This document shows, in pieces, positions 23,782 to 40,187 of a stretch of DNA of 64,000 bases. The position numbers were made by a program, and so were the translations under genes. Source of the DNA: an uncultured Methylophaga sp. (GTDB lineage: Bacteria; Pseudomonadota; Gammaproteobacteria; Nitrosococcales; Methylophagaceae); assembly GCA_965140485.1 (NCBI GenBank), contig OZ223249.1:731750-795749 (forward strand). The letters run 5' to 3'. The notes below the pieces were generated by a model that saw nothing but the letters and a program-made list of their open reading frames with translations, made no database searches and was not told the origin of the DNA. How positions within the stretch are numbered: position 1 is the first letter of the stretch; each line of letters begins with the position of its first letter.

Positions 23782-24120
23782 ATGATTCTCTACGGTATTA
23801 AAAACTGCGATACAGTAAAAAAAGCCAAGCGGTGGCTTGATGCACATTCAATTGACTATCAGTTTCATGATTTTCGCCAGCAAGGCCTTGAAGAACAGAC
23901 GATCAGAGAATGGCTTCAATCCGTTGACTGGGAGACTTTATTGAATAAACGAGGAACCACCTGGCGCAAGCTGGATGATCCACGTAAAGAGCATTTGGAC
24001 AAAGACACAGCGGTTGAACTAATGCTGGAAAACCCTACTCTGATTAAGCGACCTGTTGCGGTAAGCAACTCAACAACCATAGTCGGATTTAATGAAGATG
24101 TTTACCAACAATTTAATTAA
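23782..24120 (+). CDS. yffB: ArsC/Spx family YffB-like reductase
   Basis: LYGIKNCDTVKKA, LLNKRGTTWR, PTLIKRP; typical neighbour of dapE. Confidence 0.85.
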   Translation: MILYGIKNCDTVKKAKRWLDAHSIDYQFHDFRQQGLEEQTIREWLQSVDWETLLNKRGTTWRKLDDPRKEHLDKDTAVELMLENPTLIKRPVAVSNSTTIVGFNEDVYQQFN

Positions 24121-24610
24121 CTTAGGTTTTCCAGGTAGGGTTCTGGCACTTTTATTCTTATTCGCTCCTCTAGCTGGCTTTGCAGATGATACAAAGCATG
24201 AAGATAGTTACTTTGATCATTATTATCTTCAAGGCGGCACTTATTTGCACTATACCGATAGTGATGACTATACCGGCACAAAAATATTTACTTCGCTGGA
24301 AGGCGTTAAGTCGAATGACTGGTTGTATGGTCTAGCCTTATTTGACAACTCTTTTGGCCAGTTTTCCCAGTATCTCTATACCGGTAAGAGCTGGAATTAC
24401 CATGGTAAATTTGAAGGATTCCACACCAAGCTAACCGCGGGCTTTATCCATGGTTATCGAGGTGATTATAAGGATAAAATCCCACTCAATCACTTCGGTA
24501 TCGGGCCAGCGATAATCCCTGGCATCGGTTATGATAATGGCAAATTTGGTGCCGATGTCATTATGTTAGGTGGCGCAGGATTATTATTTACTGTCGGCAC
24601 TCATTTATAA
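24092..24610 (+). CDS. Small outer-membrane beta-barrel resembling Pseudomonas-type PagP (PA1343) lipid A palmitoyltransferase
   Basis: Signal peptide; YLQ..TY.H, F.NSFGQ.S.Y.Y.GK, KLT.G...GYRGDYKDKIPLN.FG..PAIIP..G pattern as I recall it for that family; terminal beta-strand. Confidence 0.6.
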   Translation: MKMFTNNLINLGFPGRVLALLFLFAPLAGFADDTKHEDSYFDHYYLQGGTYLHYTDSDDYTGTKIFTSLEGVKSNDWLYGLALFDNSFGQFSQYLYTGKSWNYHGKFEGFHTKLTAGFIHGYRGDYKDKIPLNHFGIGPAIIPGIGYDNGKFGADVIMLGGAGLLFTVGTHL

Positions 24611-25762
<1,152 letters not shown>

Positions 25763-25772
25763 GCAAGTTCTC

Positions 25773-26063
25773 TTGTATCCAAGACAATACAAACGGCACT
25801 ATCTATATGTGTTAGCAGCCATTGTGCTGCTATTGCAGTCGTTTGCTGTCTGGCATGATGCCGAACATCCTTTCCATAAAGCTGAAGCGCAATGTGAGCG
25901 CCTCAATGCCATTGGTCATTTTCCACTTGCTGATGTTACTGCAGATGTCAGTATTTATCTGCAACAGACTGTTATCAGTCTCGAAGTAGAGTCTCCCATA
26001 ACCACTCTGCCATTCGCGCAGCGTCAATCCTATCTTATCCGCGCCCCACCTGCTTTTTCATAA
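25773..26063 (+). CDS. DUF2946-like upstream leader protein with His/Cys motif and C-terminal RAPP arrest motif
   Basis: TTG start; hydrophobic N-terminus LYVLAAIVLLLQSFA; WHDAEHPFH...C...H; ends YLIRAPPAFS. Confidence 0.75.
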   Translation: MYPRQYKRHYLYVLAAIVLLLQSFAVWHDAEHPFHKAEAQCERLNAIGHFPLADVTADVSIYLQQTVISLEVESPITTLPFAQRQSYLIRAPPAFS

Positions 26064-26161
26064 CCTCTCCTACCCTCTTTATTTTTAATCACACTACGGA
26101 TCCGTTTAACGTTTGATCTGTAGCTATAGCTTATGGCTATGAGGAAAGTTTATGAAAAGCA
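26051..26161 (+). promoter_or_regulatory. mRNA structure able to sequester the RBS and start codon of the 26152 gene
   Basis: 26051-26063 TGCTTTTTCATAA pairs with 26150-26161 TTATGAAAAGCA (1-nt bulge); CCTC 26064-26067 pairs with SD GAGG 26141-26144. Confidence 0.6.
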
Positions 26162-27531
26162 AAAAACTGCTTGTGCTGCTGATGACAGCTGCACTGAGCC
26201 CGGTATCACCTGCGTTCGCCGGCGATATTGACGATCTGAAACAAGAAATAGCAAAAATGCGTGCTGATTATGAGCAACGCATTCAACAACTCGAACAACG
26301 TTTATCTGATGCAGAAGCGACCACTCAGGCCGTTGCCGATGAGGTAGCAGCAGTACCAGAAGCTCCCATTCCGGTGGCTTCGGCAAACAGTAGCAATACG
26401 TTTAATCCTGCTATTAGTATGGTCTTAAACGGTACCTTCAGTCAGTATCAAAATAATGCAGATGATTACGCTTTGGATGGTTTTAATGTTCAAGGTGAAG
26501 GTGGCTTAAACGAAGAAGGTTTTTCTCTGGGTGAAAGTGAGTTAACTGTAAGCTCGAATATTGATCAATTATTTTATGGTCAGGCTACACTGGCAGTGCA
26601 TGAACATGAAGGTGAAACAGAACTTGAAGTTGAAGAAGCCTATATTGAAACTCTAGGCTTAGGCAATGGCTTAACTGTTCGTGCTGGTCGTTATTTTTCT
26701 CCCATTGGTTACTTAAACGAACGTCATGCTCATGCGTGGAACTTTGCTGATGCGCCATTAATTTATCGTGGACTGTTTGGCAATCAACTTTCTACAGATG
26801 GTGTGAAACTCTCTTACCTATTACCAACTGATTATATGCTCGAGGTGGGTACCAGTGTCGGCAATGGTGATAGTTATCCTGGCAGTGGTGATCACAGTGG
26901 TATTGGTGACTGGCTGGTCTACGCCAAAACCGGTGGTGATATTGGTATAGAAAGCAGCTGGCAAGCAGGTATTTCTCATTGGCGCTCAAGCCCTGATGAT
27001 CGTTCTTATGATGGTGGACACCACCATGGTCATGATGAAGATCACGATGAAGACATTTCAGCAATGTTCAATGGTGATACTGATATCACGAATCTGTCTC
27101 TAGTTTATAAATGGGCACCGAACGGTAACTTCCGTCAGGAAAATCTGACCTTGATCGGTGAGTTCATGTATCTACATGATGATGGTGATATCAGTCATGG
27201 CAGTGATGAGTTCGCTAACTACGATGGCAAACAATACGGCGGTTATCTGGAAGGTATTTATCAATTCAATCCACAATGGCGTTCCGGTGTCCGTTATGAC
27301 TGGTTAGGTAGCAAACATCGTGCATCAGATGATGAATTGCTGGCAGATGCAGGGCTTGAAGGTGGTAGAAGCCACCCGCAACGTACCAGTGCCATGGTGG
27401 AATACTTACCGAGTGAGTTCAGCCGTATTCGCGCGCAGATTAATCATGATCAATCCTATAGCGATGATGATTGGCAAATGATTCTGCAATACACCGTTAG
27501 TCTTGGCGCTCATGGCGCGCACCAATACTAG
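26152..27531 (+). CDS. His-rich outer-membrane beta-barrel, putative Zn/metal uptake porin or receptor
   Basis: Signal peptide, N-terminal coiled coil, FNPAISMVLNG, GYLNERHAHAWNF, HHHGHDEDHDED loop, C-terminal GAHGAHQY. Confidence 0.8.
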   Translation: MKSKKLLVLLMTAALSPVSPAFAGDIDDLKQEIAKMRADYEQRIQQLEQRLSDAEATTQAVADEVAAVPEAPIPVASANSSNTFNPAISMVLNGTFSQYQNNADDYALDGFNVQGEGGLNEEGFSLGESELTVSSNIDQLFYGQATLAVHEHEGETELEVEEAYIETLGLGNGLTVRAGRYFSPIGYLNERHAHAWNFADAPLIYRGLFGNQLSTDGVKLSYLLPTDYMLEVGTSVGNGDSYPGSGDHSGIGDWLVYAKTGGDIGIESSWQAGISHWRSSPDDRSYDGGHHHGHDEDHDEDISAMFNGDTDITNLSLVYKWAPNGNFRQENLTLIGEFMYLHDDGDISHGSDEFANYDGKQYGGYLEGIYQFNPQWRSGVRYDWLGSKHRASDDELLADAGLEGGRSHPQRTSAMVEYLPSEFSRIRAQINHDQSYSDDDWQMILQYTVSLGAHGAHQY

Positions 27532-27540
27532 GAGTTCATA

Positions 27541-28434
27541 ATGAAAACACTTATTTTCACTGTTTTATTTTTATTGAGCTCACCAGTATGGGCTCAACTG
27601 TCTGTATTCGCTTGTGAACCTGAATGGGCATTCTTAACTAAAGAGTTAGGTGGTGATGATGTTTCGGTGTTTAGTGCGACCAGTGGTTTACAGGATCCGC
27701 ACTATATCCAGGCACGCCCGAGTCTGATTGCTAAAGCACGTCAAACCGATTTATTGGTTTGTACAGGTGCCGAGTTAGAAGTGGGTTGGTTGCCATTACT
27801 TCAGCGTAAAGCAGGTAACCCCAATATTCAGATTGGTGCTGAGGGCTATTTCATGGCGGCAGATTATGTCCGATTACTGGAAAAACCTGTCACTGTCGAT
27901 CGGAGTCAGGGCCATGTTCATGCAGCAGGTAATCCACATATTCAAACCAGTCCGGTGAATATTTTTAAGGTAGCGCAAGCGCTGACTGAAAGGTTAAAAC
28001 AACGTGATCCTGAACATGCCAGCAACTATGAAAAACGCTGGCAGGATTTTCAGCAGCACTGGCAAACAGCTATGAAACAATGGCAAGAGAAAGCAGCGCC
28101 TTTGAAAGGTGTGCCGATTGTTGTGCAGCATAAAAACTGGATTTACCTGACCAAATGGTTAGGACTGAACGAAGTCGCTGTGCTGGAAGCGAAACCTGCC
28201 GTACCACCCACTGTAAAACAGTTGCAATCAGTAGTTGAGAAGCTGAAACAAACACCGGCAAAAATGGTGATTCTGGCAGCCTATCAATCACCAAGAGCCA
28301 CAGATTGGTTGGTGGATAAAACAGGCATCAAAAAAGTGGTACTGCCATTCACCGTTGGTGGAGATAAAAACAGTAATAACTTGTTTGAGCTTTATGACGA
28401 CACCATCAACTTATTACTGGATGGCGCTAAATGA
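27541..28434 (+). CDS. Cluster A-I (ZnuA/TroA-like) metal-binding periplasmic protein
   Basis: QDPHYIQARPS, GAELEVGWLP, DRSQGHVHAAGNPH, HKNW, LEAKP. Confidence 0.88.
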   Translation: MKTLIFTVLFLLSSPVWAQLSVFACEPEWAFLTKELGGDDVSVFSATSGLQDPHYIQARPSLIAKARQTDLLVCTGAELEVGWLPLLQRKAGNPNIQIGAEGYFMAADYVRLLEKPVTVDRSQGHVHAAGNPHIQTSPVNIFKVAQALTERLKQRDPEHASNYEKRWQDFQQHWQTAMKQWQEKAAPLKGVPIVVQHKNWIYLTKWLGLNEVAVLEAKPAVPPTVKQLQSVVEKLKQTPAKMVILAAYQSPRATDWLVDKTGIKKVVLPFTVGGDKNSNNLFELYDDTINLLLDGAK

Positions 28435-29195
28435 ACCTGATCAATCTTGATTGGTCGCTAATATTGCCTGCCCTCGTGGCAGGCATGTTAGTTCTGACAA
28501 CACATGTGCCTCTGGGTCAGGAAGTACTCAAGAGAGGCATTATTTTTATTGACCTTGCCATTGCACAAATGGCCGCACTAGGTGTGATGGCCGCCACCAT
28601 TTTTGTTGGTGATATGCATGGTCCCTGGCTGCAAGTCAGTGCTGCTACCAGCGCGCTCTCCGCCTCCGTTTTAGTGCTGTGGTTAGAGAAACGATATCCG
28701 CATATTGTCGAAGCATTAATCGGCTTATTATTTATATTGGCCGCTAGTGGTGGGATTTTACTTGTCAGCCATGCACCACATAGTGATGAATTACTCCATG
28801 ATTTATTAGTGGGTCAGATTTTGTGGGTTACGCCTTCTCATCTGTTATGGGTCACGGCACTCTATGCTGCCTTATTAATTGTGTGGTTTACCATGCAATC
28901 CCAGCGTAGCTGGCTGTTTTATATTATATTTTCACTGACTGTCACAGCCTCCGTACAATTAGTGGGTGTGTATCTGGTCTTTGCCAGTTTAATCTTGCCC
29001 GCTTTAGCCAGCCGTGGATTTGAAAAACCCTATCATAAGCTCATGCTTGGTTATGGTATTGGCTTTCTCGGTTATTTCTTTGGGCTGATTTTAGCGTTAT
29101 TACTTGATGTGCCAATGGGCGCCATGACAGTTTGGACTTTATTTGCTCTGGTGGTATTAAGCCGCTTTATGATGCAGTGGCTAAATAGACGATAA
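28431..29195 (+). CDS. ABC-3 (ZnuB/MntB-like) metal permease
   Basis: THVPLGQEVLKRGIIFIDLAIAQMAALG, LLVGQILWV, LVGVYLVFASLILPA; ATGA overlap with the binding-protein gene. Confidence 0.82.
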   Translation: MNLINLDWSLILPALVAGMLVLTTHVPLGQEVLKRGIIFIDLAIAQMAALGVMAATIFVGDMHGPWLQVSAATSALSASVLVLWLEKRYPHIVEALIGLLFILAASGGILLVSHAPHSDELLHDLLVGQILWVTPSHLLWVTALYAALLIVWFTMQSQRSWLFYIIFSLTVTASVQLVGVYLVFASLILPALASRGFEKPYHKLMLGYGIGFLGYFFGLILALLLDVPMGAMTVWTLFALVVLSRFMMQWLNRR

Positions 29196-29235: not shown

Positions 29236-29580
29236 ATGAGCGAATCAACACAAGCCAGTCAAAACACCGTCAAACTCGTGTACTTATTATTTATTGCCAA
29301 TATTATTATTCAGTTCTTAGGTTTTGTGGCAGTGGTCATTGCTTACATAAATAAAGACGATGCCGCCGCTTGGTTACAATCTCACTATCAGTTTCAAATT
29401 AGAACATTCTGGATAGGTTTTCTGTATCTATTTATCGGCGTGTTATTCGCGTTCTTTTTAGTTGGCTATTTCATTTTAGTATTCTGGGTTATCTGGGTTG
29501 TCATTCGCTGTGTCAAAGGTATGAAATACCTGGATCAGCAACAGCCACACCCTAATCCAAACAGCTGGCTGTTTGGCTAA
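29236..29580 (+). CDS. Small membrane protein (DUF4870-like)
   Basis: VYLL...AVVIAY....A..WLQSHYQFQIRTFW...W...RCVKG. Confidence 0.7.
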   Translation: MSESTQASQNTVKLVYLLFIANIIIQFLGFVAVVIAYINKDDAAAWLQSHYQFQIRTFWIGFLYLFIGVLFAFFLVGYFILVFWVIWVVIRCVKGMKYLDQQQPHPNPNSWLFG

Positions 29581-29587
29581 AATGAAC

Positions 29588-29609
29588 AGACCGGATAAAC
29601 CGGTCTTTT
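29588..29609. terminator. Intrinsic terminator between convergent genes
   Basis: AGACCGG-ataaa-CCGGTCT followed by TTT. Confidence 0.6.
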
Positions 29610-38006: not shown

Positions 38007-40187
38007 TTAACCCTTACTCACTTTAATATGACCATTTTTCAATGCGGCAAGAATCTGCTCGCGAGGCCCGTCGGCAACAATGTGTCCTTGGTCCATGACA
38101 ATCACTCTATCCACCAAGCTCAATAAGGACGCCTTATGAGTCACTAATAATAGGGTTTTATCCTCGATATACTCTGATAGTTTTGATTTAAACCGTTCTT
38201 CAGTACTATTATCCATAGCATTTGTCGGTTCATCCAACATCACAACAGACGAATTCAATAACAACGCTCTTGCTACAGCAACGCTTTGTCGCTGACCACC
38301 AGATAAGCCTTCACCACGTTCCCCAACAGGCATATCAAACCCAGACGGATGACGGTTTACAAATTCAGTGACACCAGCAATATCGGCCGCTTTTAATACT
38401 TCATGATCTTCAGCAAATGGAGCAACCATCGTAATATTTTCACGGATACTGCCATAAAACAGCACCACATCTTGCGGTGCATAACCAATATTTTTTCTGA
38501 GATCCACAGGATCAACCTGCCGAATATCAGTATCATCGAGTAAAATAGAACCTTCACTTGGTTCATACAAACCCAACATCAGTTTTTCTATTGTGCTTTT
38601 TCCCGAACCTATTCGTCCGATAAAAGCCACTTTTTCACCGGCATTAATCTTAAAAGAGACATCGGATAAAGCGTCAATGGGTTGTTCTGGATAGCGGAAA
38701 CCCACATTTTTAAACTCAATACCACCTTTAAACTCTGGGCGATTAAGAAACTCACGACCAGAAGGTCGTTCAACGGGTAAAGCCATCAAACTATTCAAAG
38801 AGCTCAAAGCAGCTTTAGATTGGTGGTAACGTGTCAGAATGCCGGCTAATTGTGCCATTGGTGCCAATGCACGTCCTGTTAGAATCGTGCTGGCAATCAG
38901 TGCACCCATCGTAATTTCATTTTCAGTAATCATATAGACACCAAAAACAACGACACTAATTGACGCCATTTGCTGTAAAAATGAAGAAAAGTTAATCGCG
39001 CTAGCGGATAATATTCGAGCACGCTGGCTATATTTAGTCATAAAGCCAATGGTCTGCTCCCATTTACGCTGAATTGGAGTCTCTGCGCCAATACTTTTAA
39101 TGGTTTCTAACCCAGTGAGAGTCTCAATTAGGGTGGAACTTCGCTGTCCCGAATGCCTGAATAAGTGTTGAATCGTTTTAGATAAGGGGATCTGGATAAT
39201 CAAACTTACCAATATAGTTAAAGGGATCACCGCTAGAGGAATATAAGCAACAGGCCCTGCAACAAGCCAAATAACGGCTATAAATAATAATGAGAAAGGC
39301 AAATCCACCAATGTCGTCAGTGTAGCCGATGTAAAAAACTCTCTAAAAGATTCAAACTCTTGCATGCTATTCGCAAATGAACCGACCGAATTTGAACGTG
39401 CGGACATTTTCACAGCCATCACTTTCTCAAAAATGGTGGAAGAGAGAATGACATCGGCTTTTTTACTGGCAATATCAATAAAATAAGCACGAAGCGTGCG
39501 AAGTAATAATTCAAAAACAAATACTGTGGCCACCCCAATAGCTAATACCCAAAGGGTTTCTGTGGCATTGTTTGGTACCACTCGGTCATAGACATTCATC
39601 ACAAACAACGGTGATGCCAATGCAAAGCTATTCACAAGTATAGAGGCGATAAATACTTGGCCATAGATTGGCCAAAATCGCATAATAGTGCCCCAAAACC
39701 AGTGTTGCGCACGTGGTATAGCTGAAAACTCAGTACGTTTATCAAATTGATGAACGGGTTTGATAAAAATACTGTAGCCAGAGTAATGCTCTGCTAAGTC
39801 ATCAAGCGAAACCTCAGACTCTCCCTCACCTGTCTCAGGAAAAATAACTCTGGCTTTGGTTTTTTTGACTTCGAGGAGAATGCAGGCATTCGCATTGTCT
39901 AGTAACAATATAGCTGGCAACACTAGGTTAGATATTTTTGTCAGCTTTCTTTTTACAATTCGTGAAGACAGCCCTGCACGCTCAGCAGCACGACTAAATA
40001 AAGATGGTGAAAGCTTGTTATCTACTAGAGGAAGTCCTGCAGTCAATGATTCAGGACTATGAGGTTTGTTAAGAATCTTTGCCAGCAATGTCAAACACGC
40101 CAGCAAAGGATCATCATGTGTACGGTAACTATCCTGAGCATCCCACTGCTCATTTTTGTTTGTATTGATGACAGGCTCCGTATACAT
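38007..40187 (-). CDS. T1SS permease/ATPase with C39-like domain (LapB/LssB-like)
   Basis: DDPLLACL N-terminus, MNVYDRVVPN, GRIGSGKST Walker A, LSGGQRQ, MLDEPT. Confidence 0.93.
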   Translation of the reverse strand: MYTEPVINTNKNEQWDAQDSYRTHDDPLLACLTLLAKILNKPHSPESLTAGLPLVDNKLSPSLFSRAAERAGLSSRIVKRKLTKISNLVLPAILLLDNANACILLEVKKTKARVIFPETGEGESEVSLDDLAEHYSGYSIFIKPVHQFDKRTEFSAIPRAQHWFWGTIMRFWPIYGQVFIASILVNSFALASPLFVMNVYDRVVPNNATETLWVLAIGVATVFVFELLLRTLRAYFIDIASKKADVILSSTIFEKVMAVKMSARSNSVGSFANSMQEFESFREFFTSATLTTLVDLPFSLLFIAVIWLVAGPVAYIPLAVIPLTILVSLIIQIPLSKTIQHLFRHSGQRSSTLIETLTGLETIKSIGAETPIQRKWEQTIGFMTKYSQRARILSASAINFSSFLQQMASISVVVFGVYMITENEITMGALIASTILTGRALAPMAQLAGILTRYHQSKAALSSLNSLMALPVERPSGREFLNRPEFKGGIEFKNVGFRYPEQPIDALSDVSFKINAGEKVAFIGRIGSGKSTIEKLMLGLYEPSEGSILLDDTDIRQVDPVDLRKNIGYAPQDVVLFYGSIRENITMVAPFAEDHEVLKAADIAGVTEFVNRHPSGFDMPVGERGEGLSGGQRQSVAVARALLLNSSVVMLDEPTNAMDNSTEERFKSKLSEYIEDKTLLLVTHKASLLSLVDRVIVMDQGHIVADGPREQILAALKNGHIKVSKG

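Follow-up and report, generated by a model that had tools for sequence, protein, structure and literature searches.

A metal uptake cassette of Methylophaga with a Znu-type binding protein and a helix-less ABC-3 permease, without an ABC ATPase, behind a putative RAPP leader peptide

ABC importers are defined by the ATP-driven coupling of a solute-binding protein (SBP), two membrane domains and two ATPase domains. A locus of an uncultured Methylophaga sp. (GenBank assembly GCA_965140485.1, contig OZ223249.1), in which genes for a binding protein and a membrane domain stand together without one for the motor, raises the question of how such a system could import its substrate. The stretch analysed here, referred to as the window, comprises 64,000 nucleotides and corresponds to positions 731750–795749 of a complete 3.14-Mb single-contig Methylophaga genome; unless noted otherwise, coordinates are those of the window. 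An earlier description made from the letters alone (the sequence-only reading) had proposed a metal uptake operon of three co-oriented, coupled genes at 26152–29195, with a 9-bp gap and an ATGA overlap and without an ATPase gene, and had suggested that the permease either borrows an ATPase encoded elsewhere or works independently of ATP. The open reading frames (ORFs) are exactly as claimed, and the lack of an ATPase gene was borne out by an ORF and Pfam scan of the locus; the three genes were correctly listed, and a leader ORF at 25773–26063 was overlooked. Taken together, the comparisons suggest a four-gene unit composed of the leader ORF, a porin, a ZnuA-type SBP and an ABC-3 permease, for which we propose a post-transcriptional metal switch of its own. 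With a probability of roughly 60%, we regard the region 25773–29195 as one copy of a widespread proteobacterial divalent-metal uptake cassette, most likely for Zn2+, that operates without an ABC ATPase. What appears to be new, judged from gene content, is a Znu-type SBP–permease pair that lacks both the ABC motor and its docking site and is combined with a porin and a proposed arrest-peptide switch. The three structural genes are:

26152–27531, plus strand: porin-like barrel gene, 459 aa, Pfam BBP2/OmpL-like porin (33.9 bits)
27541–28434, plus strand: ZnuA-type binding protein (SBP) gene, 297 aa, PF01297 (145 bits)
28431–29195, plus strand: ABC-3 permease gene, 254 aa, PF00950 (70.8 bits, cut-off 20.1), matched in two stretches

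Reading of the sequence places the stop codon of the porin gene (TAG) at 27529–27531, followed by the 9-bp gap to the SBP gene, and the ATGA shared by the SBP and permease genes at 28431–28434. No ORF with a P-loop or ABC_tran match was found within or adjoining the operon, and the nearest nucleotide-binding domain belongs to a fused exporter approximately 9 kb downstream (~38007–40187).

One indication that the missing motor is not an accident comes from the permease itself. A search of solved structures returned only E. coli ZnuB (9OKO), aligned in two pieces that skip ZnuB residues 141–168. In ZnuB, the coupling helix alpha2 (residues 154–162) follows a cytosolic extension of transmembrane helix 5 (TM5) and forms the main contact with ZnuC (PMC12236471). 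Alignment of the cassette permeases revealed no counterpart to ZnuB 143–161 in any of them: the corresponding segment is 7–9 aa long in 43/43 distinct cassette permeases versus 28 aa in 7/7 canonical ABC-3 proteins, where it carries FDxxFAxxxGV (n=7), the two groups being assigned by the better-scoring query. In a phylogenetic tree, a single branch with 100/100 support splits the cassette permeases from the canonical ABC-3 proteins. As the sequence-only reading had suggested, the permease was modelled for a coupling helix; the AlphaFold2 (AF2) model (pLDDT 88.4, pTM 0.84) contains none between TM5 and TM6, since helix 135–154 (TM5) runs straight into helix 156–178 (TM6) with no cytosolic helix. 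The model otherwise retains the nine-helix type II importer fold, and its best Foldseek match is PsaC of PsaBC (TM score 0.75, E value 1e-8), followed by HI1470 and BtuC. With the coupling helix lost, the permease is unable to dock an ATPase in the canonical way. It is nonetheless under strong purifying selection (dN/dS 0.04–0.065 among Methylophaga copies) and is therefore not a decaying remnant. The polar residues H25, D41, Q46, Q68, E94, Q129, Q176 and D226 are membrane-embedded and invariant, and a conserved motif, PH(G/S)(G/D)E(H/L)LxDLLVGQILW, lies in and after the periplasmic helix alpha1, where it may serve as a metal hand-off site. By homology, the protein can be described as ZnuB2-like.

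A motor encoded elsewhere in the genome was sought in a census of its 42 P-loop hits, which also answers the call of the sequence-only reading for a search for orphan ZnuC/MntA-like ATPases. No ATPase in the complete genome reached the cut-off of the ZnuC or AztA models, and no orphan importer ATPase was found in the census. Each ABC ATPase either stands beside a polytopic permease or falls into a recognised soluble or special category (LptB, SufC, LolD, ABC-F and a fused DppDF), and the remaining P-loop matches are UvrA, RecN and PilT/U. The genome holds one ZnuA and one true ABC-3 permease; two weaker ABC-3 matches are FecCD permeases in complete Btu/heme-type operons, each with its own SBP and ATPase. 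The ABC-3-like and AztA-like matches at 703 kb, considered as a distal znuCB, proved to form such a complete BtuF/BtuD/BtuC-type FecCD operon. Five of five other complete or nearly complete cassette genomes, representing five families, likewise have no second ABC-3 permease, only the two halves of the cassette permease being matched. One of them, G393 (a single contig, 100% complete), has neither a FecCD permease nor a second ABC-3, so that no type II importer is present there to lend an ATPase; in a scan of G393, made with the AztA model only, no type II ATPase stands out.

Next to a Zur-like gene at 2713 kb lies an ATPase that was also considered as ZnuC and rejected, as it is part of an ABC-2/DUF3526 and TonB-receptor zinc-starvation island. 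This island (locus L128, G000:C1:2710000-2721500), which lies outside the window, is of the zinc-starvation type and encodes a COG0523 (CobW-like) GTPase, a DUF1826 protein, a 150-aa Fur-family protein (probably Zur), an ABC ATPase, a TonB-dependent receptor, two ABC-2/DUF3526 permeases and a second COG0523 protein. It is likely the genome's other zinc-acquisition system. A ZIP-family gene is located at 1093.9 kb of the genome.

The distribution of the cassette points the same way as the permease. Close relatives of the permease (44–61% identity) occur in ~70/400 sampled gammaproteobacterial genomes; the raw tally of 78/400 at E<=1e-20 (66/320 genera) takes in a few canonical ZnuB proteins and fragments, as well as two unpublished genomes, G172 and G070, which no other result of this analysis draws on. 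At E<=1e-40 the permease is found in 19/401 sampled genomes of the phylum, including one family outside the class. By these matches, about one in six of the gammaproteobacterial genomes sampled has a member of the clade, as do some other Pseudomonadota. Among other Methylophaga genomes, 5/24 carry the cassette permease; that of the window is 96% identical to the protein of M. sulfidovorans DSM 11578, and a contig scan for permease relatives yielded two close Methylophaga loci only. The synteny survey that the sequence-only reading had recommended covered ~15 kb around 20 permease matches from different gammaproteobacterial families. In 20/20 loci the order porin, SBP, permease is kept with no ATPase in the unit and the porin as first structural gene, and the surroundings of the trio share nothing else but a small upstream ORF. 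The kept trio, the helix deletion, the lack of a candidate ATPase in the genome and the purifying selection together mark the missing ATPase as a built-in property of the cassette, and not a gap.

Several neighbours of the surveyed loci deserve mention. An ATPase near the cassette in L109 was examined as a possible cassette ATPase and discarded, as it is FetA beside its own FetB. In the same locus, a MerC-family membrane protein gene (L109 6334-6768) lies directly 3' of the permease gene and before fetAB, a possible metal-handling neighbourhood. Two unrelated cassette loci, L094 and L100, have in common a trio of ORFs of ~250, 140 and 300 aa just upstream, sizes which fit ExbB/ExbD/TonB-like proteins. 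A canonical znuA/znuCB system coexists with the helix-less cassette in some genomes, namely those of L101 (G376) and G040.

The binding protein and the porin indicate what the cassette is likely to carry. The best solved relatives of the SBP are the zinc binders AdcAII, YcdH, Lmb and Synechocystis ZnuA. Its residues H54, H133 and H197, which align with the three ligand histidines of ZnuA, are invariant in 16 sequences together with H127, and the protein is predicted to be a periplasmic cluster A-I, ZnuA2-like SBP. The barrel has a signal peptide, an N-terminal coiled coil (~20–62), a His/Asp-rich loop, GGHHHGHDEDHDED, at ~288–301, and the C-terminus GAHGAHQY. A sequence search of the porin against the PDB gave a chance coiled-coil match only. 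The AF2 model (pLDDT 82) consists of the N-terminal coiled coil and a porin-like barrel without a plug; in Foldseek it is matched best by OmpT, chitoporin, OprP and DcaP, a coiled-coil porin.

A related cluster has been recognised in Vibrio. A tblastn search against plasmid records matched chromosome 2 of V. campbellii (NZ_CP050465; locus L124), which has the same gene order and no ATPase; the barrel, SBP and permease match those of the window with E values of 3e-65, 7e-81 and 3e-40, respectively. This branch is divergent (permease 37–39% identical); its permease has the same coupling-helix deletion, and the barrel ends in GAHGAH. In L124, two Zur-box-like palindromes lie upstream of the trio and there is no RAPP leader ORF, so that the Vibrio branch has Zur boxes without a leader ORF, whereas the window has a leader without a Zur box. 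In V. parahaemolyticus, V. vulnificus and V. campbellii, a cluster of an outer-membrane receptor, ZnuA2 and ZnuB2 has been predicted to belong to the Zur regulon (PMC9817125), and Vpa1307, the ZnuA2 of V. parahaemolyticus, which was presented as a new subfamily of ZnuA, promotes growth when zinc is depleted (PMC3794297). Neither PMC3794297 nor PMC9817125 mentions the missing ATPase or the missing helix, and a literature search returned no statement of an ATPase-less Znu system. For the putative orthology of Vpa1307 to the V. campbellii SBP we follow the paper; the ligand histidines occupy positions 62, 141 and 205 in V. campbellii versus the reported 69, 148 and 202 in Vpa1307, the first two with an offset of +7 and the third not. 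The Vibrio barrel gene (L124 3933-5075) is the homologue of window 26152–27531. Its product was named a TonB-dependent receptor (PMC9817125). In the window barrel, neither the plug domain nor the 22-strand barrel of such receptors was found, Pfam gave BBP2 only and the model is porin-like; judged from this model, the published name is probably wrong.

At L101, the cassette adjoins a separate complete znuA/znuCB, divergently transcribed, and shares with the canonical znuA an intergenic region that contains the Zur-box-like palindrome TGTTATATTATAACA. Zinc is favoured as the substrate because of the three-His signature and solved relatives of the SBP, the His-rich porin loop, the Zur boxes of the Vibrio and L101 loci, and the experiments with Vpa1307. 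We put zinc at ~60% and copper at ~20%, with another metal accounting for the rest.

Compared with ZnuABC (9OKO-9OKR, PMC12236471) and PsaBC (7KYP), the cassette has the same cluster A-I SBP with three ligand histidines, the same ABC-3 permease with a nine-helix type II fold, and the same translational coupling of SBP and permease. Unlike ZnuABC, it comes without a ZnuC gene, be it in the operon or elsewhere in the genome, alpha2 and the TM5 extension (143–161) are deleted, His40 is replaced by Gln, and a porin gene and a leader ORF are part of the unit. The layout also bears a functional resemblance, by analogy only, to the TRAP and TTT systems, in that a periplasmic SBP appears to feed a membrane component without an ATPase. 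TRAP and TTT are binding-protein-dependent secondary transporters with organic anion substrates and unrelated membrane folds.

The regulatory part of the proposed unit precedes the porin gene:

25773–26063, plus strand: leader ORF, 96 codons, with an uncertain TTG start
26051–26161, plus strand: structured leader RNA, in which the 3' end of the upstream ORF (uORF) pairs with the start of the porin gene

The leader ORF ends 88 nt before the porin gene. Its product begins with an N-terminal hydrophobic segment, followed by the histidines H28-x3-H32-x2-H35, the degenerate CxxC motif C41-E-R-L and, at residues 90–93 of 96, the sequence RAPP; the spacer from the Cys motif to RAPP is 45 residues, and three residues follow RAPP. 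A uORF ending in RAPP stands first in the unit, 22–120 nt before the porin gene, in 17/20 other loci, and the uORFs of these 17 loci share the N-terminal hydrophobic segment, a histidine pair, the Cys motif, and RAPP at 1–7 residues from the end. The Cys motif is CxxC in 14/17 other cassette uORFs and CxxL in the window, and the Cxx(C)-to-RAPP spacer is 43–46 residues in 15 of them. Residues H28 and C41 and the R-x-P-P pattern are invariant in alignment A3. All six Methylophaga copies have in common the sensor segment WHDAEHxFHxAxAQCERLNAIxH, including QCERL, as well as IRAPPxFS. The dN/dS ratios among these copies (0.10–0.43) indicate that the ORF is coding.

This architecture resembles that of the DUF2946 leaders CruR (B. 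pertussis Bp2923) and CutF (R. capsulatus), which are characterised by CXXC, RAPP, a conserved 45-residue spacing and the first position in metal operons (PMC9426467, PMC9973294). With CruR, the operon stays on as long as the ribosome is arrested at RAPP, and copper lifts this arrest (PMC9426467). Like CruR and CutF, the leader is the first ORF of a metal operon and has an N-terminal hydrophobic or signal segment; its Cys sensor motif precedes RAPP by exactly 45 residues, and three residues separate RAPP from the C-terminus. As in CutF, a structured RNA, here a predicted one, masks the ribosome-binding site of the next gene. The leader differs from both in that DUF2946 stays below threshold and CxxL with HxxxHxxH takes the place of CxxC. 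The downstream genes (porin, ZnuA-type SBP, ABC-3) are outside the copper genes listed for cruR operons, the survey partners of cruR including no ZnuA, ABC transporter or porin (PMC9426467), and the intergenic distance is 88 nt in the window versus 162 nt in cruR-bfrG. DUF2946 is below threshold in 6/10 homologous uORFs, with a best score of 23.5 versus 23.7 bits, and only the C-terminal half of the profile is matched. These sub-threshold scores point to a divergent subgroup that the published DUF2946 survey would have missed, and the leader is predicted to be a CruR/CutF (DUF2946)-like regulatory mini-protein of that subgroup.

In the RNA, positions 26051–26074, which comprise the last uORF codons, the stop codon and ~10 nt, form base pairs with the beginning of the porin gene (26142–26161), namely its Shine-Dalgarno sequence, AUG and first codons. 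Two inner hairpins, including the palindrome TAGCTATAGCTA, complete the structure, the minimum free energy of which is -32.8 kcal/mol (z = -4.7 versus 200 shuffles). All six Methylophaga loci preserve the outer helix, even one that is only 71% identical. By analogy with CutF, a ribosome stalled on RAPP would occlude the 5' arm of this helix and unmask the porin start.

From these elements, a pathway for metal uptake can be proposed. The metal would pass the outer membrane via the dedicated porin-like channel with its His/Asp-rich loop and would be captured by the ZnuA-type SBP with its three invariant histidines. The SBP would then pass the metal to a dimer of the ZnuB-like permease, which, lacking the helix, would serve as an SBP-gated channel or carrier. 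Uptake could be driven by the membrane potential together with cytosolic metal buffering, or possibly by protons. As to regulation, the RAPP-arrested ribosome would melt the helix that masks the porin ribosome-binding site, and possibly shield the mRNA from Rho as well; once metal is bound by the His/Cys sensor segment of the nascent peptide, arrest would be relieved and the operon switched off. The cassette probably imports its metal without ATP, a behaviour not known of any binding-protein-dependent ABC-type permease. At close to even odds, we propose in addition that this clade of type II importer domains without an ATPase constitutes an SBP-gated, ATP-independent metal channel or carrier, which would be the first such transporter of the ABC fold, and that its switch is a RAPP arrest peptide of the copper type in a zinc-tuned (His-rich) variant.

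A number of observations weigh against this proposal. The case for ATP independence is built on the lack of an identified ATPase and on the loss of the docking helix, and an ATPase could bind the permease via a non-canonical surface; the BtuD-like ATPases of the genome's two FecCD-type systems are the nearest kin of ZnuC. In E. coli ZnuB, Asp36 and His40 are needed for zinc uptake, growth being lost only in the D36A-H40A double mutant (PMC12236471). The position of His40 is an invariant Gln in the cassette permeases, and the Asp is conserved but one position earlier; the position of ZnuB H91 is V/I. As to the switch, both characterised DUF2946 leaders, CruR and CutF, sense copper and not zinc (PMC9426467, PMC9973294), the leader of the window has one Cys only and no match to Pfam DUF2946 (PF11162), and no Zur box was found near 25300–26150 with up to 3 mismatches. 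Finally, no compensatory changes or covariation were seen in the RNA helix among the six close Methylophaga relatives, so that support for the structure comes only from its energy and its conservation.

If the permease were still an ABC importer, it would have to borrow an ATPase through a non-canonical surface, for instance one of the BtuD/HmuV-like proteins that serve the two FecCD systems. The type II fold is common to ABC-3 and FecCD permeases, the AztA model finds its best match in the genome in the BtuD-like ATPase at 703 kb (146 bits), and ATPase sharing is known among ABC importers of other families. We nevertheless consider this improbable, as the main ZnuB–ZnuC contact helix is deleted in 43/43 members, both FecCD-type ATPases have complete operons to themselves, the cassette is without a linked ATPase gene in 20/20 loci, and the five other cassette genomes lack another ABC-3, the complete G393 lacking FecCD as well. 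Between the two options of the sequence-only reading, ATP-independent transport is thus clearly favoured and the borrowed ATPase disfavoured. Less probable still is that the permease-like protein is not a transporter, serving instead as a membrane dock or sensor for the SBP, for example to buffer metal in the periplasm, to supply periplasmic enzymes or to signal. The altered channel residues of E. coli ZnuB (H40 to Q, D36 shifted, H91 to V/I) and the lack of an evident energy source would agree with such a role; the full nine-helix type II fold modelled with high confidence, the invariant membrane-embedded polar residues, the permease gene that is always translationally coupled to the SBP and accompanied by a dedicated porin, in the layout of an uptake route, and the growth promoted by Vpa1307 under zinc depletion (PMC3794297) argue against it.

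It is possible, although we regard it as unlikely, that the transport mechanism is the one proposed and the substrate is copper or another metal, the cassette being a copper-acquisition route under a copper-sensing leader of the CruR type. The DUF2946 architecture of the leader (Cys motif, 45-aa spacer, terminal RAPP), the copper response of the two studied members of that family (PMC9426467, PMC9973294), the lack of a Zur box upstream in the window, and a host that is a methylotroph related to copper-demanding lineages would all be compatible with copper. Set against this are the three-His ZnuA signature of an SBP whose closest solved relatives bind zinc, the Zur boxes of a Vibrio branch whose SBP supports growth at low zinc (PMC3794297), the Zur-box-bearing intergenic region shared with the canonical znuA at L101, and the sensor motif of this lineage, where CxxC has been reduced to a single Cys amid four His, a less copper(I)-like arrangement.

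The interest of the proposed SBP-gated, ATP-independent route lies in a conserved, strongly selected clade which keeps the SBP and the membrane fold and deletes the motor gene and the docking helix. If the permease does transport, a type II membrane domain alone would provide a gated metal pathway, which bears on the gating of metal ABC permeases and on the evolution of ABC importers. It would likewise represent an unrecognised route of zinc (or copper) acquisition, present also in Vibrio species, where the SBP aids fitness at low zinc. The leader ORF would extend metal sensing by RAPP arrest peptides to a new type of operon and possibly to a new metal. With three genes and a leader, the system is small and directly testable.

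Downstream of the permease gene, two further features were noted:

29236–29580: membrane protein gene, 114 aa, after the permease gene
29588–29606, no strand assigned: hairpin with flanking T/A runs, likely a bidirectional terminator 3' of the 114-aa gene

The 114-aa protein, a three-helix membrane protein with a weak DUF4870 match, had been put forward as a possible accessory of the permease, a suggestion that the comparative data contradict. The gene is present in 34/37 Methylophaga genomes (26/26 high-quality ones), including genomes without the cassette, where it is linked to SDR and purU genes, and it occurs in 0/20 other cassette loci. It is a backbone neighbour of the genus and not an accessory. 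As no terminator-like element was found between the permease gene and the 114-aa gene, transcription of the cassette may run on into the latter in this lineage.

Upstream of the unit, a 172-aa ORF (24092–24610) shares 29 nt with the end of an ArsC-family gene. It is matched by neither Pfam nor NCBIfam and is kept at 83–95% identity in two related Methylophaga genomes.

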